From: Giardia intestinalis
Lineage: Eukaryota
Reading direction: 5' to 3' (one strand)
DNA: 64,000 nt
Assembly (NCBI GenBank): GCA_000002435.2
Contig: CM018792.1
Shown here: one piece after another, positions 15,544 to 62,019 of the stretch
How positions within the stretch are numbered: position 1 is the first letter of the stretch
Layout of the letters: every line of letters begins with the position of its first letter
The notes under the pieces: generated by a model
Databases searched by the model: none
What the model was told of the DNA's origin: nothing
What the model saw: the letters and a program-made list of their open reading frames with translations, nothing else
Program-made: the position numbers and the translations under genes

Positions 15544-17673
15544 ATGCAGCTACCTAAGGTTTATCGGAAGTGCAAAACATGTCTAGTAGGAAATAGTCTG
15601 CTCCATTGCGTCGCCGAATCACTCACTGTACAAGGTCTGACTCCTGAAAAACTAATCTCACTAGCCAAGCGGCTAGTAAGCAAGTGCTCTGGGGTGGGTC
15701 ACGCTTTGATTTCATACTATAGCGTGACTATAAAAGGTGTTAGCACAATAGAGTTTATATCTCCATATGTAGGATGGTCCATAGAAGACTATCTCATGCT
15801 TACACTATATGAGGGAAGGACCATTCCAGAGGAACAAGTATATAGATTTATGGCCGCCATCATTTGGATACTTAACCAGCTCGTGCACATATGCAGAACC
15901 TCACTTCTTATGTGGATCTTTCTTGGATACGCCAATCTATCACTAAATAATTTCTGCCTAGATGAGTTTGGAGCAATACGTTTCCGCTTAGATCTAGGTC
16001 ACACGCTAAAGAACATGATACTGGTCGATGAACGACTTGCGGACTGGCCACGGATCAAAGGGAGTGAGTTAGGTGTTCATCTTAAACTGCATATAATACA
16101 GTGCATCTTACGTCTAGCGTTTCCCCTTAACAATTTAGAAATAAATGGAATTGATCCGTACTCGGGCGCATTTTCTCGAGTATTTAAAGACTCGGAACGA
16201 AGCAAGGTGTTTTGCAGTCGCATGGAGCGTTTAATTTATTTATTTCAAAAAGAAGACATAACGTTAAGTCATATATTACATACAAACTTATTCAAAACAG
16301 AATTAGAAAAGTACTGGCAATCCTTGGGCATAACAGCAGATGACGATGCATCAACGCCTCTCATCGACTCTGTGCGTGCAAACGATATACAAAAAATATA
16401 CAATTTTTATGGACGGCAGGCTGGAATGATGACTTCTTCTGGTAAAACTGCACTTATGATAGCAGCTTCCAGAGGAGACACACGCGTGACCACACTCTTA
16501 GCGACACGGGAAGCTAACTACAGAGACATTTATGGAAACTATGCAACTCTGCTGGCAATCAAGAATGGATACAAAAATGTGGCGTTGCACCTTGCAGCGT
16601 ATGAGTCCATGGTTCTTCAAGAGGATGGTATCACCCCGTTAATGCTTCACGTTATCGGCAAAAATCTACAAGTCCCATTTCAAGAACTGATACAGGATGC
16701 GGGGAAGCAAATGAAAAATGGATTTTCTGCTCTTATGATTGCTTCCTTGACTAATGATCTGGACTATTCAATGGTACTCGCAAAGAAAGAGGCAGGATTG
16801 TGTAACGCAGAAGGGAAGACAGCAGGAACACTAGCTAACGAGCAAGGAAATACACAAATTTCACAATTCTTGGCTCGTTATGAAATAGTAATGGGAGTTG
16901 ATGGAGAAACACAGCTTCATCAAGCAGTATTAGCGGGTGATCTGCGCGCAGTGGAAGCTTATGTACATGCTGCACGTTCATATAATAAGGCTGGCTATAC
17001 AGCGTTAGGATTAGCAGCAAAGTTCAATCATACTGATATCATAAAAACTCTGATTCCCCACGAAGCTGGGATGCGGTGTAAAGTTAGCTTCGAGGCATGC
17101 GGCAGGACGTTTCAGGATCCAACGGCTTTGGCCATAGCAGTCTATCATAATAACGAGCAGGCAGTGAATCTTTTAAAACGGTATGAGGCAGGATTGGGAA
17201 TGAAGCCCCTCCAAACTACTGCCATGATGCTTGCAGCAGCGTGCGGATATAGCGGACTTATATCTCTTCTGCGAACTCGAGAAGAAAAGATGCAAGACAC
17301 ACACGGCAACACCGCGCTGATGTACGCCGTGAATAGCTCTTCCCTAGACGCAGTTTATAAACTAATGAAATACGAATCTCGAATACAAAATACAGAAGGA
17401 TACACTGCACTTATGTATGCTGCCTTCCACAATAAGGTACAAATTGTTGCTGCTCTTATGAAACTGGAAGAGGGGATGATCAATGTGCAAGGCGAACCGG
17501 CTATTATCTGTGCTATCAAGGCAGAAGCTAAAGAGTGTATAAGTATACTTGTTCGAGGATCAGAGGTGTCGTATTCTAAACAGTGTATTGAAATGATTAA
17601 ATCCAGTGCTACACTGACTTGCGCTATGAAGAGAGTTATGTTGAGGTATTTTAAAGAGGAGAAATTTCATTGA
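15544..17673 (+). CDS. ankyrin-repeat protein with degenerate kinase-like N-terminus ('protein 21.1'/dead-NEK style)
   Basis: The track start is GTG. The ATG at 15544 follows 'aactttaaaa'. There are many TALM.AA..G ankyrin repeats. The N-terminal ~170 aa has kinase-like spacing but lacks the catalytic motifs. Confidence 0.7.
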   Translation: MQLPKVYRKCKTCLVGNSLLHCVAESLTVQGLTPEKLISLAKRLVSKCSGVGHALISYYSVTIKGVSTIEFISPYVGWSIEDYLMLTLYEGRTIPEEQVYRFMAAIIWILNQLVHICRTSLLMWIFLGYANLSLNNFCLDEFGAIRFRLDLGHTLKNMILVDERLADWPRIKGSELGVHLKLHIIQCILRLAFPLNNLEINGIDPYSGAFSRVFKDSERSKVFCSRMERLIYLFQKEDITLSHILHTNLFKTELEKYWQSLGITADDDASTPLIDSVRANDIQKIYNFYGRQAGMMTSSGKTALMIAASRGDTRVTTLLATREANYRDIYGNYATLLAIKNGYKNVALHLAAYESMVLQEDGITPLMLHVIGKNLQVPFQELIQDAGKQMKNGFSALMIASLTNDLDYSMVLAKKEAGLCNAEGKTAGTLANEQGNTQISQFLARYEIVMGVDGETQLHQAVLAGDLRAVEAYVHAARSYNKAGYTALGLAAKFNHTDIIKTLIPHEAGMRCKVSFEACGRTFQDPTALAIAVYHNNEQAVNLLKRYEAGLGMKPLQTTAMMLAAACGYSGLISLLRTREEKMQDTHGNTALMYAVNSSSLDAVYKLMKYESRIQNTEGYTALMYAAFHNKVQIVAALMKLEEGMINVQGEPAIICAIKAEAKECISILVRGSEVSYSKQCIEMIKSSATLTCAMKRVMLRYFKEEKFH

Positions 17674-18611
17674 ATACCAAACCTTTGTGATAGTTTTCTT
17701 GCCCGTTCCATGTCCATGCTTAGTACAGTTGATAGTCCTTTCCAAATGACAGGGTCGAACTCATGTTGGTAAGCAGAATCTACTTGATCATCTGATTGCT
17801 GCGTATCCGAAAAACAAATTGTTGACCTAACATATAAAGACTCATATTCGTGCTTATTAAGGTCTATTTGTAGACCATGAATTGCGTAAAGTCGTTGCTG
17901 TTCTATCTTATCTGTGTATCTTCTTATCGTAATTAATCCTTCTGCATACAATTGCGCTATATCAAAGATAGCATGCACCGTTCGAGTAAAGTCTGTTGGG
18001 CTGAGAAATACGAAGGCCAGGGGGTAGAAGCCGCGGCGCGAGAGCTCCGTGACCCGCGCGAGGAGCCCCTGCTTCCGGCGCTCCTGGAGCTCGGCGCCGC
18101 ACATCGCGAGGGCCTCGTAGCGCCGCCGCTCGACGGCCTGCGCGCCGGAGGGCTCTGCCTCCCGGGGCCGCGGGGGAGCCCTGGGGGCTGCGGGCCCTGC
18201 GGTGCCGGCGGCGCACCCCGCGTACAGCGAGGCCGCGAGCTCGGGCGGGAAGCGGGCGGCGTACCCGGCCTGGAACGCGTCGGCGAGGAGGCGCAGGTCG
18301 ACGCGCGGCGGGTCTGCAGGGGCCCCGGCCCGGGGGAGGAGCCGCAGCTGGCCGCGGAGGAAGCCGGCGCCCTGGTCCTCGGCCGCCCGGGCCACCCGCG
18401 CCTCCAGGCTCCGGGCAGACAGGCGCACCGTGGCGGACAGCGCGGCCTCCGTCTGCAGCATCAGGCCGACGTCCCCCCGGGGCTGGGCGGCGTAGGACTC
18501 GTAGCCGTCCCGGAGCTCGGCCAGGAGCGCCGTGACCGCCGCGTGGTCCCGGGCCTGCGCGGCCGCCTGCACCCGGGCGGAGACGCTCGCGAGGCGCGCA
18601 CGGGGCTCCAT
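17667..18611 (-). CDS. cassette gene A, full-length form (314 aa): GC-rich N-terminal ~202 codons fused in frame to ~111 host-composition codons
   Basis: The ATG at 18611 lies 11 nt from the A/T island 'gaatttt'. GC3 is near 100% up to 18012, and the same frame then continues without a stop through normal-composition DNA to the TGA at 17667. The upstream part of the 780-aa track ORF is a GC artefact. Confidence 0.65.
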   Translation of the reverse strand: MEPRARLASVSARVQAAAQARDHAAVTALLAELRDGYESYAAQPRGDVGLMLQTEAALSATVRLSARSLEARVARAAEDQGAGFLRGQLRLLPRAGAPADPPRVDLRLLADAFQAGYAARFPPELAASLYAGCAAGTAGPAAPRAPPRPREAEPSGAQAVERRRYEALAMCGAELQERRKQGLLARVTELSRRGFYPLAFVFLSPTDFTRTVHAIFDIAQLYAEGLITIRRYTDKIEQQRLYAIHGLQIDLNKHEYESLYVRSTICFSDTQQSDDQVDSAYQHEFDPVIWKGLSTVLSMDMERARKLSQRFGIQ

Positions 18612-18653
18612 CGGACGGGGCGGAATTTTGCCGGCCGGCCAAAAATTCACTCG
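18612..18653. promoter_or_regulatory. 42-bp divergent A/B promoter with near-palindromic A/T islands
   Basis: GAATTTTGCCGGCCGGCCAAAAATTC (18623-18648) sits between the two divergent ATGs. It is one of only about five A/T-rich spots in the whole block. Confidence 0.55.
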
Positions 18654-19793
18654 ATGGACTGCATCGGCCGCGGCGTCCTCCTCCCCCCGGGCGGGGCGTG
18701 CTCGTGCGGGGCGCTTCTGGCGGAGCTGCAGCGGGTCTGCCCCCTCCTCGCCGCCTCCCCGGGGGTCTGCGCCGCGCCCCGGGCCCTTGCGTGCTGCCAC
18801 CAGCCCCCGTGCCTCGAGATCGCGCCGGCGCCGGCCACCCCGCGCAGCGCCGTCCGGGTCCCTGGGTCCGCGTGCACGGCTCCACCGCCCGCCGCAGGGC
18901 CCCCGGAGGCCGCCCCGGCCGAGAGCGTCCAGGTGACCCTCAGCGCCCAGCGCGAGTCGTTCGTGATGCAGACGATGCGGCAGGCGCACTACGGCGGCGG
19001 AGAGGCCCCCGCGAGGGCGGAGAGCGCCCGCCTGCCCGCCCCGCAGGCCTCGGACCCGAGGGAGGCCCGGCGGAGCCACGCGTCCCGCCCGCGGACGGCC
19101 GGCCCCCGCCTCCCCGCCTGCCCCGAGGAGCCCCCCGGCAGGGTCCAGTTCCGGGGCGCCCCCGAGGCCCCGCCCCTGCGCTGCGAGCCGGCCCCGCCCT
19201 CCGAGTTCAGCGACTTCGGGTGCGAGCTGCTCGCGGCGGGCCAGCCCGAGGACCGGCGGGTCTGCGGCGCCCCGTGGGTGGACGCGCAGGACCTGCTGAG
19301 CGACGGCTCCGAGCACAGCGAGTTCTACCGCCTCGTCGAGAGGGAGCTCGCGCGGCTTCCGGAGCCCGCGGCCCCGGCCCTCCCGGAGAGCGAGCCCTCG
19401 CTGGACGCGCTGCCCGTGCACGCCTCGCCCCGGGGCCCGCAGATCATCGAGCCCACGCCGGCCGCCCTGCAGGAGCCAGAGGAGCCCGCGCCCCCGCAGC
19501 CCCCCACGCCGGGCCGCTCCGACAGCGTCTCGGCAGACATCACGGAGTCGCTCCTCGTGGAGGGCCGGCCCCTGCCCGACCGCCCCCCGGGCCCGGAGCC
19601 GTCCGAGGGCAGCGCCGGGTACAGCGGAGAGGCCTTCGACAGCTCCGGCTCGCCCCGGGGCCTGACCGACGAGGCCGCGGGGTCTGCGGGCCTGGACGAG
19701 GAGGACCTGCTGGGGTCCGTCGGCGGGGACCTGCGGGCGCTGCTCATGGACAGCGGGTCCGGGTCGCTGTCTGCGGGGGCCTGGCCGGAGTGA
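18654..19793 (+). CDS. cassette gene B: acidic, Pro/Ala-rich, probably disordered protein (379 aa)
   Basis: ATG preceded by 'ccaaaaattcactcg'. GC3 is near 100% in this frame. The TGA stop is embedded in AGTGAAC (19789-19795). The N-terminal ~100 codons are uncertain, because the substitution cluster there is mostly nonsynonymous. Confidence 0.55.
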   Translation: MDCIGRGVLLPPGGACSCGALLAELQRVCPLLAASPGVCAAPRALACCHQPPCLEIAPAPATPRSAVRVPGSACTAPPPAAGPPEAAPAESVQVTLSAQRESFVMQTMRQAHYGGGEAPARAESARLPAPQASDPREARRSHASRPRTAGPRLPACPEEPPGRVQFRGAPEAPPLRCEPAPPSEFSDFGCELLAAGQPEDRRVCGAPWVDAQDLLSDGSEHSEFYRLVERELARLPEPAAPALPESEPSLDALPVHASPRGPQIIEPTPAALQEPEEPAPPQPPTPGRSDSVSADITESLLVEGRPLPDRPPGPEPSEGSAGYSGEAFDSSGSPRGLTDEAAGSAGLDEEDLLGSVGGDLRALLMDSGSGSLSAGAWPE

Positions 19794-19795
19794 AC
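19789..19795 (+). terminator. AGTGAAC poly(A)-signal-like motif overlapping the gene B stop
   Basis: It matches the Giardia-type AGTRAAY consensus and is an isolated A/T-containing motif in GC-rich DNA. Confidence 0.5.
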
Positions 19796-19816
19796 TCGGG
19801 AGAGCCTTTTTATTGA

Positions 19817-22327
19817 ATGGATTCTGCGCCACTCGCCGTCGCGATCCGGGAGCACGTCCCGGGCCCGAGGCCCCCGCCGCGGCCGTCCGGGGGGCGGTCC
19901 CTCTTCGCGCAGGCCGTGGCCGCCGGGGCCGGACAGACCGGGAGGCCCTTCGCCCTCGGGCAGCCCCCGCCGCGCGCCCCGGCCCCAGCGCCGCCCCGGG
20001 GCCCCCCACCGCCCCCCGCCGCAGAGGACCCGGGCGGGCCCCTCCTCGGGTACGGGGGCGCCGCAGACCCGGAGGCCGTCCCGTTCTGCAGCGCGGCGGA
20101 CATCGGGCTCCTCTGCCGGTCGACGAACCCCGCCCAGCGCGAGTACGGGCTCCGGATGCTCGCGAACGCCGTCGCGCTCCGGCGCGTCCGGGACGGCGGC
20201 GCCCCCGACCCCGTCCTCGAGGCCCTGCTCTGCCTCCCCGCCGACCCGCACGCGTGCCCCTCGTCTGCCGGCCACCTCCTCCTCCTGGGCCTGCGGGACG
20301 CCCTGGAGTCCGGGAGCCCCGGCCTCCTCGACGCCGCCCTCTCCGGCCTCGCCACGGTCTTCGTCGCCGACGAGGGCTTCCTCAGCGAGACCGTCCACGT
20401 CGGGGCCGCGCTGCTCGGGCTGACGTCCAGCTCGGTCGCCTTCCCCCTCGGCTCCCTGCTGCGGCGGCTCGTCGAGCACGGGCTCCCGGGGCTCCTGGGC
20501 CAGGCCCTCGACGCCGCCGCGCGCGCAGACGAGCGGCGCCGGGAGCGGCTCGCCCACAGCGCGTACCTGCTGGCCGAGCGCGTGCTCATCGGCTGCTGCC
20601 CCGCAGACGAGCCCCCGGAGACCGCCGCCGGCCTGCGGGCCCTCGCGGAGCGGCTCCTCGCGGCGCTCCTGGGCGAGCTCGCCGGGCTGGCGGAGACGGG
20701 GGCCTTCCTGACGACCGCCTCCCGCGTCGCCCTCCGGACGCTCTGCTACGACCACGTCCTCGACGGCCACGCGCTCGGCCGGGACGCCGTCGCCCTCCTC
20801 GTCGAGTCCCTCGAGGCGTTCGTCGGGGCGCTCCCCGGCCAGGACGAGGCGGTCCGCACAGAGCTCCTCTCGGCCGCCACGCTCCACTACCTCCTCGTCG
20901 CCCGGGTCCTGCGGGGGAGCCCCGAGCTCTGCGCCCTGCACGCGGCCGTCTCTGCGACGTGCGCCGCCGCCCTGGAGCGCCACGCCCCGGCCGCCCCCGC
21001 GGAGCTCAGCGCGCTCCTCGTCCTGCTCCGGATCCTCCGGGCCCGGGCCGCCGTCCCCCGCGCGCGCCTGGGGCTCTCGGAGGCATGCTTCCGGCGGCTG
21101 GTCGACTGGCGGGCCCCGCCCGAGGCCGGGGGCTTCGCGCTGCCCCAGGGGCCCTCCGCGGCGTTCGCCCCGTTCTACGCCCTCGCGGCCGTCCAGTGGC
21201 GCGGCCCGGGCGAGTGGGGCGCGGCGGAGGCCTGGGTCGGCTGCGTGATGGACGTCCTCGCCAGCGGGCCCCCGGTCGCGCGCTGGGCGCCCCCGGCCGT
21301 CGACGCCCACCGGCGGGCAGGCGTGCTCCCGTGCGCGGTGACCGACGCAGGGGTCGCCCTCGCGCTCCTCGTCGCGGCCCTGGCGGCCGTCTGGGGCCCC
21401 GGGCTCCCGTTTGCCGCCGGCCTCGCCGAGCGGGTCGGGGAGCGCCTGGCAGGGCTCCCGGCCGAGTTCCGGTTCGTCGTCGCGTTCCCGCTCGCCCGGC
21501 TCCTCCCCCCGCTGCCCGCTATCGAGTGCGGGCTCTACCCGAACGCGGCGCTCCTCGGGGCGCTCCGGGCCGTCACGGGCCACCCGGGCTACGACCCCGC
21601 GGCAGAGGCGCTTGCGCACGTCGACGCCCGCTGCCCGTGCCCCGCGCTCGCGGCCCTCCACGCGGCGTGCGTGCTCGCCTCGGACGGGATGCGGCGCGAC
21701 GGGGCGTGGCGGCTCGCGGTCCTCCGGCTCGCGCTGCAGCGCCTGGCCGGGCTGGAGACCGCAGGGGCCGCCCGGGGCCGCGTCCTCGCGTACGGGCTCC
21801 TCTGCGTCCTCGACACGCTGACGGGCGTCTGTCGCCTCCCCCCGGACGCCGCGGCCCTCCTCGCGGAGACGCTCGCCGGGGTCCTCCGCCTCGCCCGCGC
21901 AGGCCCCGCCCCCGCCGCCGAGCTCCTCTACGCAGCGCCCGCCGGGGGGCTCCGGACGCTCGACGCCGCCGCCGGCGCGTTTGTCGAGGGCCTCCACGGG
22001 GGCGCGGCGGTGCTCCCCGAGGCCCCGCTCGTCTACCTCGCGCTCCTCCACCCGCAGCTCGTCCCGGACCCCCGCCGCCGGGCAGAGCTCTGGTCCGGGC
22101 TCGCGCTCCTGCGGCTCGACTTCGCGGCGCTCGACGGGGGCCTCCTCGCGGGGCTCTGCGAAGACGACCCCGCGCCCGTCCTCGCGTGCCTCGCGTGCTA
22201 CGAGCGCCGCGCAGAGACCGCCCTGTCGCGCCGCGTCCTCGCCCGGTACGCAGAGGCCCACCGGGGGCAGAGGCCCGACCGGGTCGTCGTCGCGGCCGTC
22301 GAGGAGGCCCTCCGACCAGCGGGCTAG
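19817..22327 (+). CDS. cassette gene C: 836-aa Ala/Leu-rich alpha-helical-repeat (ARM/HEAT-like) protein
   Basis: ATG preceded by 'cctttttattga'. GC3 is near 100%. Six of the 7 between-copy substitutions are third-position synonymous changes in this frame. The overlapping 925-aa (+) and 978-aa (-) ORFs are Arg/Pro/Gly low-complexity artefacts. Confidence 0.8.
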   Translation: MDSAPLAVAIREHVPGPRPPPRPSGGRSLFAQAVAAGAGQTGRPFALGQPPPRAPAPAPPRGPPPPPAAEDPGGPLLGYGGAADPEAVPFCSAADIGLLCRSTNPAQREYGLRMLANAVALRRVRDGGAPDPVLEALLCLPADPHACPSSAGHLLLLGLRDALESGSPGLLDAALSGLATVFVADEGFLSETVHVGAALLGLTSSSVAFPLGSLLRRLVEHGLPGLLGQALDAAARADERRRERLAHSAYLLAERVLIGCCPADEPPETAAGLRALAERLLAALLGELAGLAETGAFLTTASRVALRTLCYDHVLDGHALGRDAVALLVESLEAFVGALPGQDEAVRTELLSAATLHYLLVARVLRGSPELCALHAAVSATCAAALERHAPAAPAELSALLVLLRILRARAAVPRARLGLSEACFRRLVDWRAPPEAGGFALPQGPSAAFAPFYALAAVQWRGPGEWGAAEAWVGCVMDVLASGPPVARWAPPAVDAHRRAGVLPCAVTDAGVALALLVAALAAVWGPGLPFAAGLAERVGERLAGLPAEFRFVVAFPLARLLPPLPAIECGLYPNAALLGALRAVTGHPGYDPAAEALAHVDARCPCPALAALHAACVLASDGMRRDGAWRLAVLRLALQRLAGLETAGAARGRVLAYGLLCVLDTLTGVCRLPPDAAALLAETLAGVLRLARAGPAPAAELLYAAPAGGLRTLDAAAGAFVEGLHGGAAVLPEAPLVYLALLHPQLVPDPRRRAELWSGLALLRLDFAALDGGLLAGLCEDDPAPVLACLACYERRAETALSRRVLARYAEAHRGQRPDRVVVAAVEEALRPAG

Positions 22328-22328
22328 C

Positions 22329-22335
22329 GTTCACT
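22329..22335 (-). terminator. AGTGAAC poly(A)-signal-like motif overlapping the kinase stop
   Basis: The minus strand reads TGAGTGAAC. Only 7 bp separate the convergent stops of C and D. Confidence 0.5.
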
Positions 22336-23264
22336 CAATCAGGGGCACCTGACCCCAGGGCGGCCCGCAGGCCCGCGACCTCCCCCCGGAGCCGGGCGAC
22401 CTCGTCCTCCAGGGCCTTGAAGCGCAGGGCCGTCGCGACCGCAGGCGCCCCGCCCTCTGCGTCGAGGAGCTCCACGAGGGCCGCGGCGGTGAGGCGGCGC
22501 TCCGGCTCCAGGACGAGGAGGTGGGCGAGGACGCCCCGGACGACGGGGTCCCCGACCGCGCCCAGGTCCGGCCGCCAGCCCGCGACGTAGACCTCCGCGG
22601 GGGCCCGCCCGGAGAGGAACGGGGGCCTGCCGCCCGCCGCGAGCTCGTAGGCGACCATCCCGAGGCTCCACATGTCCGCGGCCGGCGTGTGGCTCCCGCC
22701 CCGCAGGACCTCCGGCGCGGCGTAGACGGGGACGGCCATGGAGGCGAGCCCCCCGGGGCCCTCCCTGCAGAGCCCGAAGTCGGAGATGGCGAACTCCGCC
22801 CCGGCCTCGTCGAGGAGGACGTTCGCGGGCCGCAGGTCGCAGTGCGTGAGGGCGGGGAGCGGGGCGCCCGCGGCGTCGGTCTTCCCGGGCCGGTGGAGGT
22901 AGGCGAGCCCCGCGCCCACCTGGCGGAGGACGGCGACGACCATCTCGCGCGGGGCGAGCTGCCTTCTGCGGCGGAGGCTCCGGATGGCCCCGTCGAGGGA
23001 GCCTGCGTAGCGCCGCATCTCGACGTAGATGTAGCCCTCGTGCCGGACGACGCGCCCGTACTCGACGACGTTCGGGTGGCGGAGGCGCGGGAGGGTCCGG
23101 AGCTCGAGCTCGAGCGAGGCCTGCGCGTCGGGGGGCAGCCCGTCGGTCGGGATCTCCTTGACCGCCCTGTCGGGGGCGCTCTTCAGGCCGTAGACGGTCC
23201 CGTGGGCCCCGCTCCCGAGCTCTGCGCCCAGGTCTTCGAGGAGGGCGTCGATGGCCTCGGACAT
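22335..23264 (-). CDS. cassette gene D: NEK-like Ser/Thr protein kinase with short coiled-coil tail (309 aa)
   Basis: ATG preceded by 'attaaaaag'. Motifs are LGSGAHGTVY, AVKEI, HPNVVEY, HCDLRPANVLL, SDFGL, AAPEV and DMWSLG. The TGA stop overlaps AGTGAAC. Confidence 0.9.
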   Translation of the reverse strand: MSEAIDALLEDLGAELGSGAHGTVYGLKSAPDRAVKEIPTDGLPPDAQASLELELRTLPRLRHPNVVEYGRVVRHEGYIYVEMRRYAGSLDGAIRSLRRRRQLAPREMVVAVLRQVGAGLAYLHRPGKTDAAGAPLPALTHCDLRPANVLLDEAGAEFAISDFGLCREGPGGLASMAVPVYAAPEVLRGGSHTPAADMWSLGMVAYELAAGGRPPFLSGRAPAEVYVAGWRPDLGAVGDPVVRGVLAHLLVLEPERRLTAAALVELLDAEGGAPAVATALRFKALEDEVARLRGEVAGLRAALGSGAPD

Positions 23265-23268
23265 CTTT

Positions 23269-23595
23269 TTAATCCGCGACTGGGCGATTGGGTGGGCTCA
23301 ATCGCTTGGGCTCAGATCGGGGCCTGTATAGATTCACCGAACAGATATGACAATTAGCGCACTTACTACCTAAGTTACGTCTTCCTGCAGCAGAAAAATC
23401 CAATGAGACCACCGCGCTCTTAGTAATATTAGAATTTGCGCATTTTGTCTTATCGTTATTAGAGTCAAAGATTTTTATCCTGGCACAATTATTGGATCTG
23501 TCCTTGTAGTTAGTAGTGGAAAATCCCACTCCACATGATGTTTGTGCCCATATAAACTGGATAATTAAGGCAACAAACACAAATCTGCCAAGCAT
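23269..23595 (-). CDS. small ORF with signal-peptide-like N-terminus, reading into the right end of copy 1 (doubtful)
   Basis: ATG at 23595 and a hydrophobic N-terminus, MLGRFVFVALIIQFIWA. The first 93 codons are host-composition DNA, and the last 15 codons plus the stop lie inside the repeat. Confidence 0.25.
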   Translation of the reverse strand: MLGRFVFVALIIQFIWAQTSCGVGFSTTNYKDRSNNCARIKIFDSNNDKTKCANSNITKSAVVSLDFSAAGRRNLGSKCANCHICSVNLYRPRSEPKRLSPPNRPVAD

Positions 23596-31000: not shown

Positions 31001-31423
31001 ACCTCGTGTTAGAGCTAACTCAAGGGCTGTCTTTCCATCTGCACCACGTACGTCCTCCATGTATTCATTTTCAAGTAAAAAGCGAAGGCAGCGGGGCGCA
31101 TTATAGGTAATCGATAGAGTTGTAAGGCTTTGGCCTTTAGAAGATAGTTTCTGTTCTAAAGGATACAGGTGAACGAAAATATCTATGTAGTCATTTTTCA
31201 AGGAGGCAACCAAGGCCGTCATGCCGTCATTAGAGATAAGTCCTACCTCGTCTGGAAGAAGTAACTCTAGAATTTCTGAGTGTCCCGCCCTGGCCGCATA
31301 CATCAGTGCCGTTCTACCCCATCTATCAACTGTCTTCCTGAACTTGTTCCGATTAAGTCGTATAAATTCTGTGTCGCCTGAGTATGCTGCTTCGAACCAC
31401 GCAAGTTTGTCCATGGGCTCCAA
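28073..31423 (-). CDS. ankyrin-repeat / long coiled-coil protein (1116 aa)
   Basis: Ankyrin repeats at both ends (TALMYAA..GH) with a central heptad-rich region. Confidence 0.8.
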   Translation of the reverse strand: MEPMDKLAWFEAAYSGDTEFIRLNRNKFRKTVDRWGRTALMYAARAGHSEILELLLPDEVGLISNDGMTALVASLKNDYIDIFVHLYPLEQKLSSKGQSLTTLSITYNAPRCLRFLLENEYMEDVRGADGKTALELALTRGHFKAVRILMSKFTYSWQSLNKASLFVKRQNLAEFEELVVRHFGEALPEYIKKNSNGHIFTVTNESPNPEASDTHSSVDSFDIFSDNLTPQLDTISPPITDTSVKLQVQTSAPLPKPDRAPSLVKIIASTSTSDLVDKLQLQNSELKSKQTEEKNLIETMQQHLSDFQRIKAEMREKLQLSLSTIEDQKREIYVLRVALRAKIAAITEGTDESVSNNVISMGDEELSINNVEDLLTIMERTKYVGDDTGVEKDVQIAMLEERLREKQNKISMLEKKADTPGRDVTTQYNLDDALTSITYVNTGVQVHDCIEDNLMENLNISKATIEELTTRLAESSQRNAALKEQLSNLEHSTRDAAADGVLETSVRVMEYELSKLKSSNALLAQNLKKAMESEPKYVAMEMEQNVLMQKLANAEESNKRMMGELAGYQERIAALESTLSEERTMKTANAEVSLLQKKNRALESQMQSIKRSLISYGSVERSYRIEQENIANKYKVLLHKYESIRAAYTQLELKHQLVEKELNTCRAYRTFQSTINSTHRPPVINPFARSHVTRSAQLTQESLNMSDLISLPVENLDGNQGDVHRSHTVASAWRSPSLDGSPSPLVQRGHYSAKQSSGSGRERGVKSVQIPRSYQPVGRNSFDHQISSLPTMPIVSTSPSKLESILSEKLTKSMVYASNVPTDLMTSVVNGDREKFYANLSLAGEAMENGVTALMLAAEHNEPEFARLLIQCEAGLSRADGRRAIDIAISAQNYAIADMLIPYEGYSSEELVRIGGRKTELMEAAMRNDIVRVYCFRHVQGGLRDMSGCTALMYAAERGHADTIRILLDIEKKITNTQGATALMLAAVNNKVDAVNMLKGAEARMRNQEHHTALMLATRANHPMIVEALIELEGGMCVETAGLVGSRVTALMYAAYYGYGMCVSLLAPREHSLVDKNGLTALDWAINCHKSVDPTCKNRIIQILQQYILTPTEQYP

Positions 31424-56287: not shown

Positions 56288-56911
56288 CTAAAGAGTAAGC
56301 TTAAGAAATACGAAGGCCAGGGGGTAGAAGCCGCGGCGCGAGAGCTCCGTGACCCGCGCGAGGAGCCCCTGCTTCCGGCGCTCCTGGAGCTCGGCGCCGC
56401 ACATCGCGAGGGCCTCGTAGCGCCGCCGCTCGACGGCCTGCGCGCCGGAGGGCTCTGCCTCCCGGGGCCGCGGGGGAGCCCTGGGGGCTGCGGGCCCTGC
56501 GGTGCCGGCGGCGCACCCCGCGTACAGCGAGGCCGCGAGCTCGGGCGGGAAGCGGGCGGCGTACCCGGCCTGGAACGCGTCGGCGAGGAGGCGCAGGTCG
56601 ACGCGCGGCGGGTCTGCAGGGGCCCCGGCCCGGGGGAGGAGCCGCAGCTGGCCGCGGAGGAAGCCGGCGCCCTGGTCCTCGGCCGCCCGGGCCACCCGCG
56701 CCTCCAGGCTCCGGGCAGACAGGCGCACCGTGGCGGACAGCGCGGCCTCCGTCTGCAGCATCAGGCCGACGTCCCCCCGGGGCTGGGCGGCGTAGGACTC
56801 GTAGCCGTCCCGGAGCTCGGCCAGGAGCGCCGTGACCGCCGCGTGGTCCCGGGCCTGCGCGGCCGCCTGCACCCGGGCGGAGACGCTCGCGAGGCGCGCA
56901 CGGGGCTCCAT
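56288..56911 (-). CDS. cassette gene A, C-terminally truncated form (207 aa)
   Basis: Codons 1-202 are identical to copy 1. At the repeat edge the frame runs into the local flank and ends ...FVFLKLTL then TAG. Confidence 0.5.
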   Translation of the reverse strand: MEPRARLASVSARVQAAAQARDHAAVTALLAELRDGYESYAAQPRGDVGLMLQTEAALSATVRLSARSLEARVARAAEDQGAGFLRGQLRLLPRAGAPADPPRVDLRLLADAFQAGYAARFPPELAASLYAGCAAGTAGPAAPRAPPRPREAEPSGAQAVERRRYEALAMCGAELQERRKQGLLARVTELSRRGFYPLAFVFLKLTL

Positions 56912-56953
56912 CGGACGGGGCGGAATTTTGCCGGCCGGCCAAAAATTCACTCG

Positions 56954-58093
56954 ATGGACTGCATCGGCCGCGGCGTCCTCCTCCCCCCGGGCGGGGCGTG
57001 CTCGTGCGGGGCGCTTCTGGCGGAGCTGCAGCGGGTCTGCCCCCTCCTCGCCGCCTCCCCGGAGGTCTGCGCCGCGCCCCGGGCCCTTGTCTGCTGCCGC
57101 CAGCCCCCGTGCCTCGAGATCGCGCCGGCGCCGGCCACCCCGAGCAGCGCCGTCCGGGTCCCTGGGTCCGCGTGCACGGCTCCACCGCCCGCCGCAGGGC
57201 CCCCGGAGGCCGCCCCGGCCGAGAGCGTCCAGGTGACCCTCAGCGCCCAGCGCGAGTCGTTCGTGATGCAGACGATGCGGCAGGCGCACTACGGCGGCGG
57301 AGAGGCCCCCGCGAGGGCGGAGAGCGCCCGCCTGCCCGCCCCGCAGGCCTCGGACCCGAGGGAGGCCCGGCGGAGCCACGCGTCCCGCCCGCGGACGGCC
57401 GGCCCCCGCCTCCCCGCCTGCCCCGAGGAGCCCCCCGGCAGGGTCCAGTTCCGGGGCGCCCCCGAGGCCCCGCCCCTGCGCTGCGAGCCGGCCCCGCCCT
57501 CCGAGTTCAGCGACTTCGGGTGCGAGCTGCTCGCGGCGGGCCAGCCCGAGGACCGGCGGGTCTGCGGCGCCCCGTGGGTGGACGCGCAGGACCTGCTGAG
57601 CGACGGCTCCGAGCACAGCGAGTTCTACCGCCTCGTCGAGAGGGAGCTTGCGCGGCTTCCGGAGCCCGCGGCCCCGGCCCTCCCGGAGAGCGAGCCCTCG
57701 CTGGACGCGCTGCCCGTGCACGCCTCGCCCCGGGGCCCGCAGATCATCGAGCCCACGCCGGCCGCCCTGCAGGAGCCAGAGGAGCCCGCGCCCCCGCAGC
57801 CCCCCACGCCGGGCCGCTCCGACAGCGTCTCGGCAGACATCACGGAGTCGCTCCTCGTGGAGGGCCGGCCCCTGCCCGACCGCCCCCCGGGCCCGGAGCC
57901 GTCCGAGGGCAGCCCCGGGTACAGCGGAGAGGCCTTCGACAGCTCCGGCTCGCCCCGGGGCCTGACCGACGAGGCCGCGGGGTCTGCGGGCCTGGACGAG
58001 GAGGACCTGCTGGGGTCCGTCGGCGGGGACCTGCGGGCGCTGCTCATGGACAGCGGGTCCGGGTCGCTGTCTGCGGGGGCCTGGCCGGAGTGA
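56954..58093 (+). CDS. cassette gene B, copy 2
   Basis: It has the same signals as copy 1 and differs by 5 amino-acid changes and 1 synonymous change. Confidence 0.55.
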   Translation: MDCIGRGVLLPPGGACSCGALLAELQRVCPLLAASPEVCAAPRALVCCRQPPCLEIAPAPATPSSAVRVPGSACTAPPPAAGPPEAAPAESVQVTLSAQRESFVMQTMRQAHYGGGEAPARAESARLPAPQASDPREARRSHASRPRTAGPRLPACPEEPPGRVQFRGAPEAPPLRCEPAPPSEFSDFGCELLAAGQPEDRRVCGAPWVDAQDLLSDGSEHSEFYRLVERELARLPEPAAPALPESEPSLDALPVHASPRGPQIIEPTPAALQEPEEPAPPQPPTPGRSDSVSADITESLLVEGRPLPDRPPGPEPSEGSPGYSGEAFDSSGSPRGLTDEAAGSAGLDEEDLLGSVGGDLRALLMDSGSGSLSAGAWPE

Positions 58094-58116
58094 ACTCGGG
58101 AGAGCCTTTTTATTGA

Positions 58117-60627
58117 ATGGATTCTGCGCCACTCGCCGTCGCGATCCGGGAGCACGTCCCGGGCCCGAGGCCCCCGCCGCGGCCGTCCGGGGGGCGGTCC
58201 CTCTTCGCGCAGGCCGTGGCCGCCGGGGCCGGGCAGACCGGAAGGCCCTTCGCCCTCGGGCAGCCCCCGCCGCGCGCCCCGGCCCCAGCGCCGCCCCGGG
58301 GCCCCCCACCGCCCCCCGCCGCAGAGGACCCGGGCGGGCCCCTCCTCGGGTACGGGGGCGCCGCAGACCCGGAGGCCGTCCCGTTCTGCAGCGCGGCGGA
58401 CATCGGGCTCCTCTGCCGGTCGACGAACCCCGCTCAGCGCGAGTACGGGCTCCGGATGCTCGCGAACGCCGTCGCGCTCCGGCGCGTCCGGGACGGCGGC
58501 GCCCCCGATCCCGTCCTCGAGGCCCTGCTCTGCCTCCCCGCCGACCCGCACGCGTGCCCCTCGTCTGCCGGCCACCTCCTCCTCCTGGGCCTGCGAGACG
58601 CCCTGGAGTCCGGGAGCCCCGGCCTCCTCGACGCCGCCCTCTCCGGCCTCGCCACGGTCTTCGTCGCCGACGAGGGCTTCCTCAGCGAGACCGTCCACGT
58701 CGGGGCCGCGCTGCTCGGGCTGACGTCCAGCTCGGTCGCCTTCCCCCTCGGCTCCCTGCTGCGGCGGCTCGTCGAGCACGGGCTCCCGGGGCTCCTGGGC
58801 CAGGCCCTCGACGCCGCCGCGCGCGCAGACGAGCGGCGCCGGGAGCGGCTCGCCCACAGCGCGTACCTGCTGGCCGAGCGCGTGCTCATCGGCTGCTGCC
58901 CCGCAGACGAGCCCCCGGAGACCGCCGCCGGCCTGCGGGCCCTCGCGGAGCGGCTCCTCGCGGCGCTCCTGGGCGAGCTCGCCGGGCTGGCGGAGACGGG
59001 GGCCTTCCTGACGACCGCCTCCCGCGTCGCCCTCCGGACGCTCTGCTACGACCACGTCCTCGACGGCCACGCGCTCGGCCGGGACGCCGTCGCCCTCCTC
59101 GTCGAGTCCCTCGAGGCGTTCGTCGGGGCGCTCCCCGGCCAGGACGAGGCGGTCCGCACAGAGCTCCTCTCGGCCGCCACGCTCCACTACCTCCTCGTCG
59201 CCCGGGTCCTGCGGGGGAGCCCCGAGCTCTGCGCCCTGCACGCGGCCGTCTCTGCGACGTGCGCCGCCGCCCTGGAGCGCCACGCCCCGGCCGCCCCCGC
59301 GGAGCTCAGCGCGCTCCTCGTCCTGCTCCGGATCCTCCGGGCCCGGGCCGCCGTCCCCCGCGCGCGCCTGGGGCTCTCGGAGGCATGCTTCCGGCGGCTG
59401 GTCGACTGGCGGGCCCCGCCCGAGGCCGGGGGCTTCGCGCTGCCTCGGGGGCCCTCCGCGGCGTTCGCCCCGTTCTACGCCCTCGCGGCCGTCCAGTGGC
59501 GCGGCCCGGGCGAGTGGGGCGCGGCGGAGGCCTGGGTCGGCTGCGTGATGGACGTCCTCGCCAGCGGGCCCCCGGTCGCGCGCTGGGCGCCCCCGGCCGT
59601 CGACGCCCACCGGCGGGCAGGCGTGCTCCCGTGCGCGGTGACCGACGCAGGGGTCGCCCTCGCGCTCCTCGTCGCGGCCCTGGCGGCCGTCTGGGGCCCC
59701 GGGCTCCCGTTTGCCGCCGGCCTCGCCGAGCGGGTCGGGGAGCGCCTGGCAGGGCTCCCGGCCGAGTTCCGGTTCGTCGTCGCGTTCCCGCTCGCCCGGC
59801 TCCTCCCCCCGCTGCCCGCTATCGAGTGCGGGCTCTACCCGAACGCGGCGCTCCTCGGGGCGCTCCGGGCCGTCACGGGCCACCCGGGCTACGACCCCGC
59901 GGCAGAGGCGCTTGCGCACGTCGACGCCCGCTGCCCGTGCCCCGCGCTCGCGGCCCTCCACGCGGCGTGCGTGCTCGCCTCGGACGGGATGCGGCGCGAC
60001 GGGGCGTGGCGGCTCGCGGTCCTCCGGCTCGCGCTGCAGCGCCTGGCCGGGCTGGAGACCGCAGGGGCCGCCCGGGGCCGCGTCCTCGCGTACGGGCTCC
60101 TCTGCGTCCTCGACACGCTGACGGGCGTCTGTCGCCTCCCCCCGGACGCCGCGGCCCTCCTCGCGGAGACGCTCGCCGGGGTCCTCCGCCTCGCCCGCGC
60201 AGGCCCCGCCCCCGCCGCCGAGCTCCTCTACGCAGCGCCCGCCGGGGGGCTCCGGACGCTCGACGCCGCCGCCGGCGCGTTTGTCGAGGGCCTCCACGGG
60301 GGCGCGGCGGTGCTCCCCGAGGCCCCGCTCGTCTACCTCGCGCTCCTCCACCCGCAGCTCGTCCCGGACCCCCGCCGCCGGGCAGAGCTCTGGTCCGGGC
60401 TCGCGCTCCTGCGGCTCGACTTCGCGGCGCTCGACGGGGGCCTCCTCGCGGGGCTCTGCGAAGACGACCCCGCGCCCGTCCTCGCGTGCCTCGCGTGCTA
60501 CGAGCGCCGCGCAGAGACCGCCCTGTCGCGCCGCGTCCTCGCCCGGTACGCAGAGGCCCACCGGGGGCAGAGGCCCGACCGGGTCGTCGTCGCGGCCGTC
60601 GAGGAGGCCCTCCGACCAGCGGGCTAG
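58117..60627 (+). CDS. cassette gene C, copy 2 (836 aa)
   Basis: The ORF is intact, with one replacement (Q->R) and 6 synonymous differences relative to copy 1. Confidence 0.8.
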   Translation: MDSAPLAVAIREHVPGPRPPPRPSGGRSLFAQAVAAGAGQTGRPFALGQPPPRAPAPAPPRGPPPPPAAEDPGGPLLGYGGAADPEAVPFCSAADIGLLCRSTNPAQREYGLRMLANAVALRRVRDGGAPDPVLEALLCLPADPHACPSSAGHLLLLGLRDALESGSPGLLDAALSGLATVFVADEGFLSETVHVGAALLGLTSSSVAFPLGSLLRRLVEHGLPGLLGQALDAAARADERRRERLAHSAYLLAERVLIGCCPADEPPETAAGLRALAERLLAALLGELAGLAETGAFLTTASRVALRTLCYDHVLDGHALGRDAVALLVESLEAFVGALPGQDEAVRTELLSAATLHYLLVARVLRGSPELCALHAAVSATCAAALERHAPAAPAELSALLVLLRILRARAAVPRARLGLSEACFRRLVDWRAPPEAGGFALPRGPSAAFAPFYALAAVQWRGPGEWGAAEAWVGCVMDVLASGPPVARWAPPAVDAHRRAGVLPCAVTDAGVALALLVAALAAVWGPGLPFAAGLAERVGERLAGLPAEFRFVVAFPLARLLPPLPAIECGLYPNAALLGALRAVTGHPGYDPAAEALAHVDARCPCPALAALHAACVLASDGMRRDGAWRLAVLRLALQRLAGLETAGAARGRVLAYGLLCVLDTLTGVCRLPPDAAALLAETLAGVLRLARAGPAPAAELLYAAPAGGLRTLDAAAGAFVEGLHGGAAVLPEAPLVYLALLHPQLVPDPRRRAELWSGLALLRLDFAALDGGLLAGLCEDDPAPVLACLACYERRAETALSRRVLARYAEAHRGQRPDRVVVAAVEEALRPAG

Positions 60628-60634
60628 CGTTCAC

Positions 60635-61564
60635 TCAATCAGGGGCACCTGACCCCAGGGCGGCCCGCAGGCCCGCGACCTCCCCCCGGAGCCGGGCGAC
60701 CTCGTCCTCCAGGGCCTTGAAGCGCAGGGCCGTCGCGACCGCAGGCGCCCCGCCCTCTGCGTCGAGGAGCTCCACGAGGGCCGCGGCGGTGAGGCGGCGC
60801 TCCGGCTCCAGGACGAGGAGGTGGGCGAGGACGCCCCGGACGACGGGGTCCCCGACCGCGCCCAGGTCCGGCCGCCAGCCCGCGACGTAGACCTCCGCGG
60901 GGGCCCGCCCGGAGAGGAACGGGGGCCTGCCGCCCGCCGCGAGCTCGTAGGCGACCATCCCGAGGCTCCACATGTCCGCGGCCGGCGTGTGGCTCCCGCC
61001 CCGCAGGACCTCCGGCGCGGCGTAGACGGGGACGGCCATGGAGGCGAGCCCCCCGGGGCCCTCCCTGCAGAGCCCGAAGTCGGAGATGGCGAACTCCGCC
61101 CCGGCCTCGTCGAGGAGGACGTTCGCGGGCCGCAGGTCGCAGTGCGTGAGGGCGGGGAGCGGGGCGCCCGCGGCGTCGGTCTTCCCGGGCCGGTGGAGGT
61201 AGGCGAGCCCCGCGCCCACCTGGCGGAGGACGGCGACGACCATCTCGCGCAGGGCGAGCTGCCTTCTGCGGCGGAGGCTCCGGATGGCCCCGTCGAGGGA
61301 GCCTGCGTAGCGCCGCATCTCGACGTAGATGTAGCCCTCGTGCCGGACGACGCGCCCGTACTCGACGACGTTCGGGTGGCGGAGGCGCGGGAGGGTCCGG
61401 AGCTCGAGCTCGAGCGAGGCCTGCGCGTCGGGGGGCAGCCCGTCGGTCGGGATCTCCTTGACCGCCCTGTCGGGGGCGCTCTTCAGGCCGTAGACGGTCC
61501 CGTGGGCCCCGCTCCCGAGCTCTGCGCCCAGGTCTTCGAGGAGGGCGTCGATGGCCTCGGACAT
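60635..61564 (-). CDS. cassette gene D, NEK-like kinase, copy 2
   Basis: The ATG at 61564 follows 'attaaaaag'. There is one replacement (P->L). The 15-codon upstream extension in the track ORF (start 61609) is created by the 8-bp insertion and lacks an initiator. Confidence 0.9.
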   Translation of the reverse strand: MSEAIDALLEDLGAELGSGAHGTVYGLKSAPDRAVKEIPTDGLPPDAQASLELELRTLPRLRHPNVVEYGRVVRHEGYIYVEMRRYAGSLDGAIRSLRRRRQLALREMVVAVLRQVGAGLAYLHRPGKTDAAGAPLPALTHCDLRPANVLLDEAGAEFAISDFGLCREGPGGLASMAVPVYAAPEVLRGGSHTPAADMWSLGMVAYELAAGGRPPFLSGRAPAEVYVAGWRPDLGAVGDPVVRGVLAHLLVLEPERRLTAAALVELLDAEGGAPAVATALRFKALEDEVARLRGEVAGLRAALGSGAPD

Positions 61565-62019
61565 CTTTTTAATCCGCGACTGGGCGATTGGGTGATTGGG
61601 CGGGCTCAATCGCTTGGGCTCAGACTGAGATACCGCCTAGCTGAGCGCCGCTCAATGAGGGTGATCGGGCGGAATTGAACGAAAAGGAAAGGACCCGACC
61701 ATCGTTCCAGAGATGGCTTGACCGAGTTCGCCTGTCGACTAGGATCAGATCAGGCAGCTAGTACTGGACTACTCACTATCAATATGTATTCTATCACTGG
61801 AGTTATGGAACAGCTAAGTGAAGTCTATATTCTTAAGATGAATCTTAATTGTCAATAATTGATGTTTACAAATCTGGAGTCTCTGCATCTTAGGTCAATC
61901 CTAAATAGGTAAATATGAGCATGTCCAGATAAAGTTTACTGTCAACCCACATAGTAAGATAAGTTAAAGCAGATTACGACCTCCGAGGTTGAAAGAGGGA
62001 ATGCTTGTTGATGACCTCA

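Follow-up and report, generated by a model that had tools for sequence, protein, structure and literature searches.

How does a protein kinase gene come to be built from little but G- and C-ending codons in a genome that is about 45% guanine plus cytosine (GC)? The question is raised by a 64,000-nucleotide stretch of Giardia intestinalis contig CM018792.1 (assembly GCA_000002435.2; hereafter the window), whose mean is ~45% GC and which has two blocks of ~79% GC, at 18-23 kb and 56-61.6 kb. Each block is a cassette of four genes, A(-), B(+), C(+) and a Nek-type kinase(-). Copy 1 occupies 18004..23316 (5,313 bp, ~79% GC) and copy 2, in the same orientation and offset exactly 38,300 bp downstream, occupies 56304..61624 (5,321 bp). 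The kinase genes, encoding 309 aa each, lie at 22335..23264(-) and 60635..61564(-). Our reading is that the kinase is a native Giardia Nek of subfamily GL1, lodged in an old island that was GC-saturated by a fixation bias and gene conversion, and we give this joint reading a probability of roughly 0.7. The evolution of the locus, rather than the kinase itself, is the more interesting part, and it would represent known processes in an unusual place.

The kinase gene and its GC-rich island

The kinase as such is already on record. Copy 1 was recognized by its open reading frame (ORF), by Pfam, by an exact-sequence look-up and in the published kinome table. Its protein is an exact match to XP_001706129.1 / KAE8304034.1, annotated as ‘Kinase, NEK’ in G. 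intestinalis WB (assemblage A, here a chromosome contig of 2.76 Mb), and residues 14-217 match the Pfam Pkinase family (PF00069) with E=4.4e-32 (111.9 bits, against a cutoff of 31.7). In the Giardia kinome the gene is GL50803_101307, or GK086, a Nek of subfamily GL1 listed as ‘Active (K,D,D present)’ and 3:1:1 (Manning et al. 2011, PMC3218828, Table S1), and it is described there as ‘almost identical to two others’. Those two are GK088 (GL50803_86934, 308 aa) and GK088b (Manning et al. 2011, PMC3218828), the latter being cassette copy 2 (KAE8304058.1). Its family, its predicted activity and the existence of three near-identical copies can all be read from that table, and we add nothing at the level of the kinase. 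A literature search with the gene identifiers returned nothing beyond the kinome tables and one transcriptome table. Both bear on expression, the absence of which the first-pass annotation of this sequence had named as a refutation, and both speak in its favour: the kinome table gives values from serial analysis of gene expression (SAGE), and the third copy, unannotated at the time, was reported as a transcribed region by transcription start site sequencing (TSS-seq) and RNA-seq (Tolba et al. 2013, PMC3792122, Table 2).

In DNA of 79% GC, long ORFs occur in all six frames, and an ORF by itself is therefore not evidence of a gene. The reading frame of the kinase is fixed by the Pfam score, by a period-3 GC pattern, by orthologues in four other Giardia lineages and by a confident AlphaFold model. 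The same Pfam match and the bilobal kinase fold of the model bear out the first-pass identification of a eukaryotic protein kinase. Overall, the gene is ordinary for Giardia: it is vertically inherited, it is transcribed, and its promoter and polyadenylation (poly(A)) signal are of Giardia type.

What is not ordinary is the composition. The kinase gene is 76.5% GC, with values of 0.81, 0.52 and 0.965 at the first, second and third codon positions (GC1, GC2 and GC3), and A or T is the last base in only 10 of the 309 codons. The remaining 299 end in G or C, in agreement with the earlier description of a gene written in GC-rich codons, and the shift toward Ala, Gly, Pro and Arg that had been noted with it is also real, as these four residues (GARP) make up 44% of the protein, compared to 21-29% in its paralogues and 23.5% in NOG1. 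The extreme GC is a property of the four-gene island, not of the kinase as such. Between the two cassettes there are 15 substitutions and one 9-nt indel. In the kinase the sole difference is at codon 105 (22950..22952, minus strand), which reads CCG for Pro in copy 1 but CTG for Leu in copy 2, so that the single replacement placed by the first-pass annotation at 22951 is confirmed as P105L; the Leu allele of copy 2 is the derived state. Across the cassette, copy 2 carries the derived state at 12 of the 14 differences that could be polarized, and it looks like the drifting copy. Besides P105L, its derived changes include a replacement in gene C and five in gene B, of which four fall within 18763-18843.

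The island extends well beyond the WB strain. Orthologues of gene C were found on short GC-rich contigs (89, 79, 69 and 69% identity), and all four genes stand together on one 6.4-kb contig of 75-79% GC, with GC3 of 0.88-0.97, in a B-like lineage. The junction between C and the kinase, at which the kinase poly(A) signal lies against the C stop codon, is common to the A, E-like, B-like and distant lineages. The first-pass remark that the kinase travels with three other proteins therefore holds outside the window as well. In a lineage ~78% identical to WB (contig L012), A-B-C stands between two AT-rich flanks, without the kinase. The distant lineage has, in order, A, UQ_con, ankyrin-Nek, B, C and the 3' end of the kinase; there the island and the two interposed genes are 54-66% GC, compared to 35-45% elsewhere in that lineage. 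Since the interposed genes are raised as well, the GC enrichment is regional and not tied to one protein. In G. muris, gene C, the one island gene compared in that species, is 52.9% GC with GC3 of 0.55, like its neighbours, and has different flanking genes. This normal composition indicates that the enrichment arose inside the G. intestinalis complex. The conserved, GC-saturated A-B-C-kinase island across several Giardia lineages is new, and it was not discussed in any paper found in the literature searched.

Some further observations were made on the surroundings of the island. The genes that separate A from B in the distant lineage, for a ubiquitin-conjugating enzyme and an ankyrin-Nek, occupy 801-3439 of contig L015, both with raised regional GC; in the other lineages A and B are 42 nt apart. 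Comparison of the flanks of the B-like cassette contig with those of either WB copy gave nothing significant beyond the cassette. The far-upstream flank in P15 resembles that of copy 2, and a short upstream element is common to copy 1, P15 and the B-like contig.

Origin of the kinase and of its composition

A sharp island of 79% GC in a ~45% GC genome invites the explanation that the cassette is a horizontally acquired high-GC segment, bacterial or viral, that carried its own kinase, since its composition would thereby be explained. A word-indexed search with the WB protein, our first protein search, prompted this idea. It returned three Giardia orthologues (89, 74 and 65% identity) and then GC-rich bacterial and plant kinases at E~1e-13, the first non-orthologous matches being actinobacterial, myxobacterial and planctomycete kinases, and no Giardia Nek paralogue. 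The absence of a Pfam family above threshold in genes A, B and C would also fit foreign DNA. However, when the low-GC orthologue was used as the query, the orthologues were followed by ~17 Giardia ‘Kinase, NEK’ proteins (E 1e-66 to 1e-21), and non-Giardia matches began at ~1e-18. The kinase was also compared with eight GL1 kinase domains of normal composition, the sequences being taken from the kinome table (Manning et al. 2011, PMC3218828). The best-scoring paralogue was GK178 (GL50803_3546; 255 bits, 45.6% identity), which answers the earlier call for the closest normal-GC paralogue, and the seven further GL1 domains scored 134-211 bits, whereas a canonical Giardia Nek-GL2 scored 80 bits, bacterial kinases ~70, human NEK2 66.3 and CaMK1 66.1. 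On these scores and the low-GC search, we read the bacterial matches as an artefact of the word index and composition bias, and the kinase as a native member of the Giardia GL1 clade and not foreign DNA.

The rest of the cassette tells against acquisition in the same way. Among 1.8 billion proteins, the only relatives of gene C are its Giardia orthologues, of which that of G. muris has normal GC, and two diplomonad-like proteins. GC rises stepwise between lineages (53% to 66% to 79%), the cassette genes carry Giardia-type AT-rich initiators and AGTGAAC signals, and the divergence between assemblages is in line with what ordinary Neks of Giardia show. Neither an integrase nor a transposase was found, and no terminal inverted repeats; in the 64-kb window there are no inverted repeats of at least 100 nt and no tRNA or Rfam matches, and the one candidate mark of mobility is the imperfect 11-nt direct repeat that cassette copy 1 has at its ends. 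A bacterial or viral origin was rejected on the GL1 paralogue scores and the low-GC search, and we consider it scarcely credible. Ribosomal DNA (rDNA), the best-known GC-rich DNA of Giardia, with a unit of about the size of the cassette, was also considered as a source and rejected, as Rfam finds no rRNA or other RNA family in the window. The case carries a practical warning. This is because GC-skewed proteins draw spurious high-GC bacterial ‘relatives’ in word-indexed searches, so that a native gene can look bacterial, and because GC-saturated genes break short-read assemblies and are easily misread as foreign or missed.

Within Giardia, the first-pass term NEK-like stands, as GenBank and the kinome both say Nek and the GL1 paralogues are the closest relatives. 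Outside Giardia the likeness is weak: NEK2 is the best-scoring solved structure, but its lead over CaMK1 is only 0.2 bits. Family assignment by structure was tried and abandoned, as a Foldseek search of the PDB with the kinase model gave at least 2000 kinase chains at E<=0.001, all generic at the top ranks (CDK2, ASK1, CaMKII, Aurora), with no Nek signal. Details that support a Nek are the long linker before the catalytic loop, as in NEK2, the predicted helix after the domain, and Y69, which aligns with NEK2 Y70 at the ‘Tyr-down’ position (Tyr97 in NEK7); it is Cys in the B-like orthologues. The placement of GL1 within Nek rests on Manning et al. 2011 (PMC3218828).

The third copy of the kinase is a lone 1-kb GC spike beside GWT1, without A-B-C. 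It is homologous to the cassette copies over a span that starts ~50 nt upstream of the ATG and stops shortly beyond the poly(A) signal. The spike is present in WB-type contigs, in P15 and in the distant lineage, and the junction between the kinase and GWT1 is common to the A, E and distant lineages. As the C-kinase and kinase-GWT1 junctions are both shared between lineages, both kinase loci predate the lineage splits. Yet the kinase copies are 99.5-100% identical within assemblage A, whereas identity from A to the other lineages is 93% (E), 84% (B-like) and 73.5% (distant). This pattern of old junctions and near-identical copies within a genome indicates that the copies are homogenized by concerted evolution via gene conversion. 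Ectopic gene conversion is also suggested by the GC spike at GWT1 stopping exactly at the edges of paralogous homology. The first-pass suggestion of a ‘self-contained regulatory module’, offered there as speculation, is not supported: this copy exists without A-B-C, and gene C has different neighbours in G. muris.

The direction of sequence change was compared between young and old substitutions. The young differences, between the two WB cassettes (n=14), comprise 10 changes from GC to AT, 2 from AT to GC and 2 between G and C. On the long WB branch the corresponding numbers are 34, 31 and 64, half of the fixed changes being G<->C transversions, and the share of GC-to-AT changes differs between the two classes (Fisher p=0.0011). 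These data indicate that new mutations are AT-biased but are not fixed, and that some force favours G/C. Synonymous divergence is low (dS of 0.25 between A and B), with a ratio of nonsynonymous to synonymous divergence (dN/dS) of 0.4-0.7. Protein identity of the kinase is 89% with P15 and 74% with the B-like orthologue, which is typical for Giardia Neks, as the unclassified ones average 88% between WB and P15 and 78% between WB and GS (Manning et al. 2011, PMC3218828).

We propose that the A-B-C-kinase island would have been pushed to 75-80% GC (GC3 0.93-0.97) within the G. intestinalis species complex, and that the driver would be a fixation bias for G/C, most plausibly GC-biased gene conversion (gBGC) at a recombination-prone locus. 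Ectopic gene conversion would hold the cassette and GWT1-linked copies identical inside each genome, and the 1-kb GC spike at GWT1 would be a product of that conversion. As a step limited to WB, the whole island would also have been duplicated 38 kb away. gBGC is the most economical candidate because conversion demonstrably acts on the kinase sequence.

An alternative is that the high GC is kept by selection or is produced by local GC-biased mutation. The target of selection would be codon usage or mRNA, or else a property of the island at the DNA level, for example chromatin, R-loops or a function that overlaps the genes. A GC3 of 0.96 would fit very strong codon selection, the edges of the island match gene edges, and gene conversion is not directly observable here. 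Codon selection, however, does not predict that GC1, GC2 and the amino acids would be shifted too (GARP 44%), and the SAGE levels are unremarkable. That two unrelated interposed genes share the raised GC in the distant lineage points to a regional effect, and the young differences, at 10:2 in favour of GC to AT, run in the opposite direction to a GC-biased mutation process. Concerted evolution, furthermore, shows conversion acting on the kinase sequence. Selection or biased mutation is thus an unlikely explanation, albeit one with real points in its favour, and a native kinase in an island saturated by fixation bias and gene conversion is the reading that we prefer.

Several points weigh against that reading. 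The polarization of the WB cassette differences rests on 14 sites and parsimony, and gBGC is not separable from selection for G/C with present data. Our survey of GC islands covered the 64-kb window. Of the cassette-linked kinase copy, the E-like and distant lineages show only 24-28 nt, at contig ends. Two Logan contigs from assemblage-A samples (L003 and L004) each run from a WB cassette right flank through the kinase into GWT1, and these joins may be repeat-induced assembly chimeras or real recombinant arrangements. With regard to the protein, the literature searched holds no enzymatic, localization or knock-down data on the kinase gene, and its predicted catalytic competence is not assured in view of the off-consensus residues R145 at HRD+2 and V178 at APE-5 (positions counted from the conserved HRD and APE motifs). 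The helix predicted at residues 272-304 has no counterpart in the kinome table, which gives no coiled coil for this protein.

If the bias is indeed gBGC, the island would be a natural reporter of recurrent homologous recombination, and this is testable with existing isolate genomes. The occurrence and frequency of recombination in Giardia are still debated.

The kinase protein and its predicted activity

The AlphaFold2 (AF2) model of the kinase is confident, with a predicted local distance difference test (pLDDT) score of 90.6 and a predicted template modelling (pTM) score of 0.88. It comprises an N-terminal helix (residues 2-11), a kinase domain (~12-268) and a C-terminal helix (272-304). Every motif in the first-pass list was found where expected on the minus strand: the Gly loop GSGAHG at aa 17-22 (23199-23216), AVKEI at aa 34-38 (23151-23165), the catalytic loop HCDLRPAN at aa 141-148 (22821-22844), DFG at aa 162-164 (22773-22781) and APE at aa 183-185 (22710-22718). 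The Lys/Asp/Asp triad is kept, as is the likely alphaC Glu, E54, which is unchanged across orthologues. Overall, K36, E54, D143, N148, D162, G17/G19/G22 and A183-E185 are invariant in orthologues that diverge at 35% of residues.

In the catalytic loop, Cys replaces the Arg of HRD and Arg replaces the Lys at HRD+2. With C142 preceding the catalytic Asp, the protein is a non-RD kinase, as had been recognized. H141, D143, L144, R145, P146, A147 and N148 are constant in all orthologues, and C142 alone varies within the loop, HCD being kept in assemblages A, B and E and replaced by HGD in the most distant orthologue. HCD does not, however, set this gene apart. The Arg position is variable across GL1 (HRD, HGD, HGG, HGN), and HCDLRPAN is identical in several GL4 Neks of the kinome table. 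Non-RD status is, by these comparisons, a family habit and not a peculiarity of this kinase.

The argument that all core motifs are present and that the enzyme is therefore probably active was reasonable as far as the motifs go, and would still favour activity, but it overlooked two residues. One is R145, at the HRD+2 position where the consensus is Lys, and the other is V178, at APE-5, where the consensus is Thr or Ser; across orthologues they are conserved as Arg and as Val/Ile. The P+1 loop reads AVPVYAAPE and keeps the Pro of Ser/Thr-type kinases at APE-4. Lys is found at HRD+2 in 86% of Ser/Thr kinases and in all human Neks but Nek10, and its replacement in Nek1 lowers activity 6-8 fold (van de Kooij et al. 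2019, PMC6570481). On balance we lean toward a Ser/Thr kinase that is weakly or unconventionally regulated, independently of activation-loop phosphorylation.

It is doubtful, by comparison, that the protein is a pseudokinase or scaffold in which the Lys/Asp/Asp triad survives, catalysis is crippled by the lost HRD Arg, HRD+2 Lys and APE-5 Thr, and the role is non-catalytic. The catalytic loop HCDLRPAN and the P+1 loop AVPVYAAPE are both compatible with such a role, as are the loss of activity in the Nek1 mutant (PMC6570481), the replacements gathering in cassette copy 2 and the fact that the majority of Giardia Neks are catalytically inactive, 142 being ‘dead’ (Manning et al. 2011, PMC3218828). 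A protein that could do without ATP binding and phosphotransfer, though, would not be expected to keep K36, E54, D143, N148, D162, the Gly loop and APE invariant between lineages that differ at 35% of residues, and the curated kinome calls the kinase active. Arg at HRD+2 is moreover compatible with catalysis in Src-type tyrosine kinases, in which the loop reads HRDLRAAN.

A more speculative thought follows from the Src-like D-L-R-x-x-N loop and the missing APE-5 Thr, the residue that anchors Ser/Thr substrates. The Neks with HCDLRPAN, meaning this kinase and several fast-evolving GL4 Neks, might be shifted in phospho-acceptor and supply part of the unexplained tyrosine phosphorylation of Giardia. 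To our knowledge Giardia has no tyrosine kinases, and phosphotyrosine is clearly detectable in its cells; even so, we hold this to be quite improbable.

The kinase has no ankyrin repeats, but a complete kinase domain and then one amphipathic helix. The tail, described as coiled-coil-like in the first-pass annotation, is 42 aa long and not the 50 aa given there, and it contains a single predicted helix of ~33 residues (aa 272-304; 22353..22451, minus strand). The helix spans about four heptads, and in the best register 7 of 9 a/d positions are hydrophobic. The same post-domain helical element is found in GL1 paralogues. It is a possible dimerization zipper, and by analogy with the leucine zipper of NEK2 it probably lets the protein dimerize.

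Other genes of the window and likeness to known systems

The four cassette genes were defined by codon-position GC and orthologues. Gene A (copy 1 at 17667..18611, minus strand) encodes an unannotated conserved protein. Homology and high GC end at 18004 (...PLAFVF), and the gene A frame of copy 1 runs 112 codons past the cassette boundary into the normal-GC flank (17667-18003), whereas that of copy 2 (56288-56911, 207 aa) ends 5 codons past it. Gene A is conserved in three other lineages, yet it is not in the current WB annotation. Gene B (18654..19793, plus strand; copy 2 at 56954-58093) is GL50803_00d23876, a Pro/Ala/Ser/Glu-rich hypothetical protein of 379 aa. Gene C (19817..22327, plus strand; copy 2 at 58117-60627) is GL50803_00d60704, a predicted alpha-solenoid protein of 836 aa that is restricted to diplomonads. 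In a profile search of 1.8 billion proteins, gene C found only Giardia and diplomonad-like relatives, including GMRT_14638 of G. muris.

The AF2 model of gene C is an alpha-solenoid of moderate confidence, with only generic HEAT/ARM proteins as structural matches, and a profile search of the PDB with gene C found nothing. At aa 94-117 the motif ADIGLLCRSTNPAQREYGLRMLANA gives a sub-threshold match to RPAP1_C (13.7-17.2 bits, cutoff 27), a match that 4 of the 5 Giardia orthologues show at this motif, as does the diplomonad-like protein P0160. The G. muris orthologue has no Pfam hit, RPAP1_N was not detected, and an exhaustive profile search with gene C returned no RPAP1 proteins. Gene C may be a very divergent RPAP1/Rba50, which we offer as a lead only.

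In the cassette an AT-rich initiator precedes each ATG, and A and B diverge across a 42-nt palindromic AT-cored promoter. The kinase promoter stub (23265..23316, minus strand) has the AT-rich initiator GATTAAAAAG directly before the ATG, together with CCAATCG / CAATCGATTG-like boxes, and WB, P15 and the B-like and distant lineages have all retained the promoter motif. These boxes are repeated upstream of the kinase ATG (23265-23316, 61565-61624; contigs L002, L016, L009 and L001), the 9-nt indel gives copy 2 one extra box of the CCAATCG / CAATCGATTG type, and they may be a conserved transcription-factor site. Gene C and the kinase are convergent, with stop codons 7 nt apart. AGTGAAC, which we take to be the Giardia-type polyadenylation signal, overlaps the stop codons of gene B and of the kinase (22329..22335, minus strand, in the latter); just beyond the signal of the kinase, homology to the GWT1-linked copy stops.

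The direct repeat at the ends of the cassette, TTGGGCT[G/C]AGA, lies at 17996-18006 and 23306-23316 and is found in copy 1 only; it may be microhomology used in placing that copy. Insertion of copy 1 into a gene was considered and rejected, as the flanks joined across the repeat give no continuous ORF. The kinase has as its neighbour NOG1, a nucleolar GTP-binding protein (24548-26578, minus strand), and a cathepsin-like cysteine protease (62020-63588, minus strand) lies just right of copy 2. Elsewhere in the window are a canonical Nek of GL2-like type that is cut by the window start (1-1533, minus strand) and, at 15544-17673(+), 28073-31414(-) and 48008-50341(+), two ankyrin-repeat genes of protein 21.1 type and a kinesin.

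Among known systems, the closest to the kinase are its GL1 paralogues, especially GK178 (GL50803_3546) and the short GK087 (GL50803_11040), with kinase domains 40-46% identical to it (Manning et al. 2011). They share with it a long insert before the catalytic loop (YLHxPxKTDxxGxxLP), the P+1/alphaF region APEVLxGxxxTPAADMWSLG and the post-domain helical segment, and GK087, like this kinase, ends after the helix without ankyrin repeats. Most of the paralogues, in contrast, carry 5-10 ankyrin repeats, and they have a normal composition (GARP 0.21-0.29) and HRD or HGD with Lys at HRD+2. Only this gene, among GL1, is GC-saturated, triplicated and linked to A-B-C.

Human NEK2 resembles the kinase in its score of 66.3 bits, in an extended linker before the catalytic loop, in Tyr70 (Tyr69 here) and in a helix after the domain, which in NEK2 is a dimerizing leucine zipper. 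It differs in being an RD kinase with Lys at HRD+2, Thr at APE-5 and an autophosphorylated Thr in the activation loop, and its score is tied with that of CaMK1 (66.1). Human NEK10, a dual-specificity Nek, also lacks Lys at HRD+2, a position that helps to set phospho-acceptor specificity (van de Kooij et al. 2019, PMC6570481). NEK10, however, has Thr at HRD+2 and Ile at APE-4, where this kinase has Arg and Pro, and the I693P replacement in NEK10 abolishes tyrosine phosphorylation (van de Kooij et al. 2019, PMC6570481).

For the island, the nearest likeness within Giardia is the rDNA unit, a short tract of extreme GC in which the spacers are GC-rich too, and for which gBGC has been suggested in the literature as the cause. 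The island differs in being interstitial and protein-coding and not subtelomeric; it is reported to lie at least 18 kb from either window end. With gBGC tracts in general, those of rDNA and of gerbil and bird gene clusters, it shares the effect on all three codon positions and on amino-acid composition. The ‘runaway GC’ gene clusters of gerbils and birds are localized tracts attributed to gBGC, and we know of no demonstrated meiosis in Giardia. A further difference from the known tracts is the paralogue at GWT1, which appears to gain its GC by ectopic conversion.

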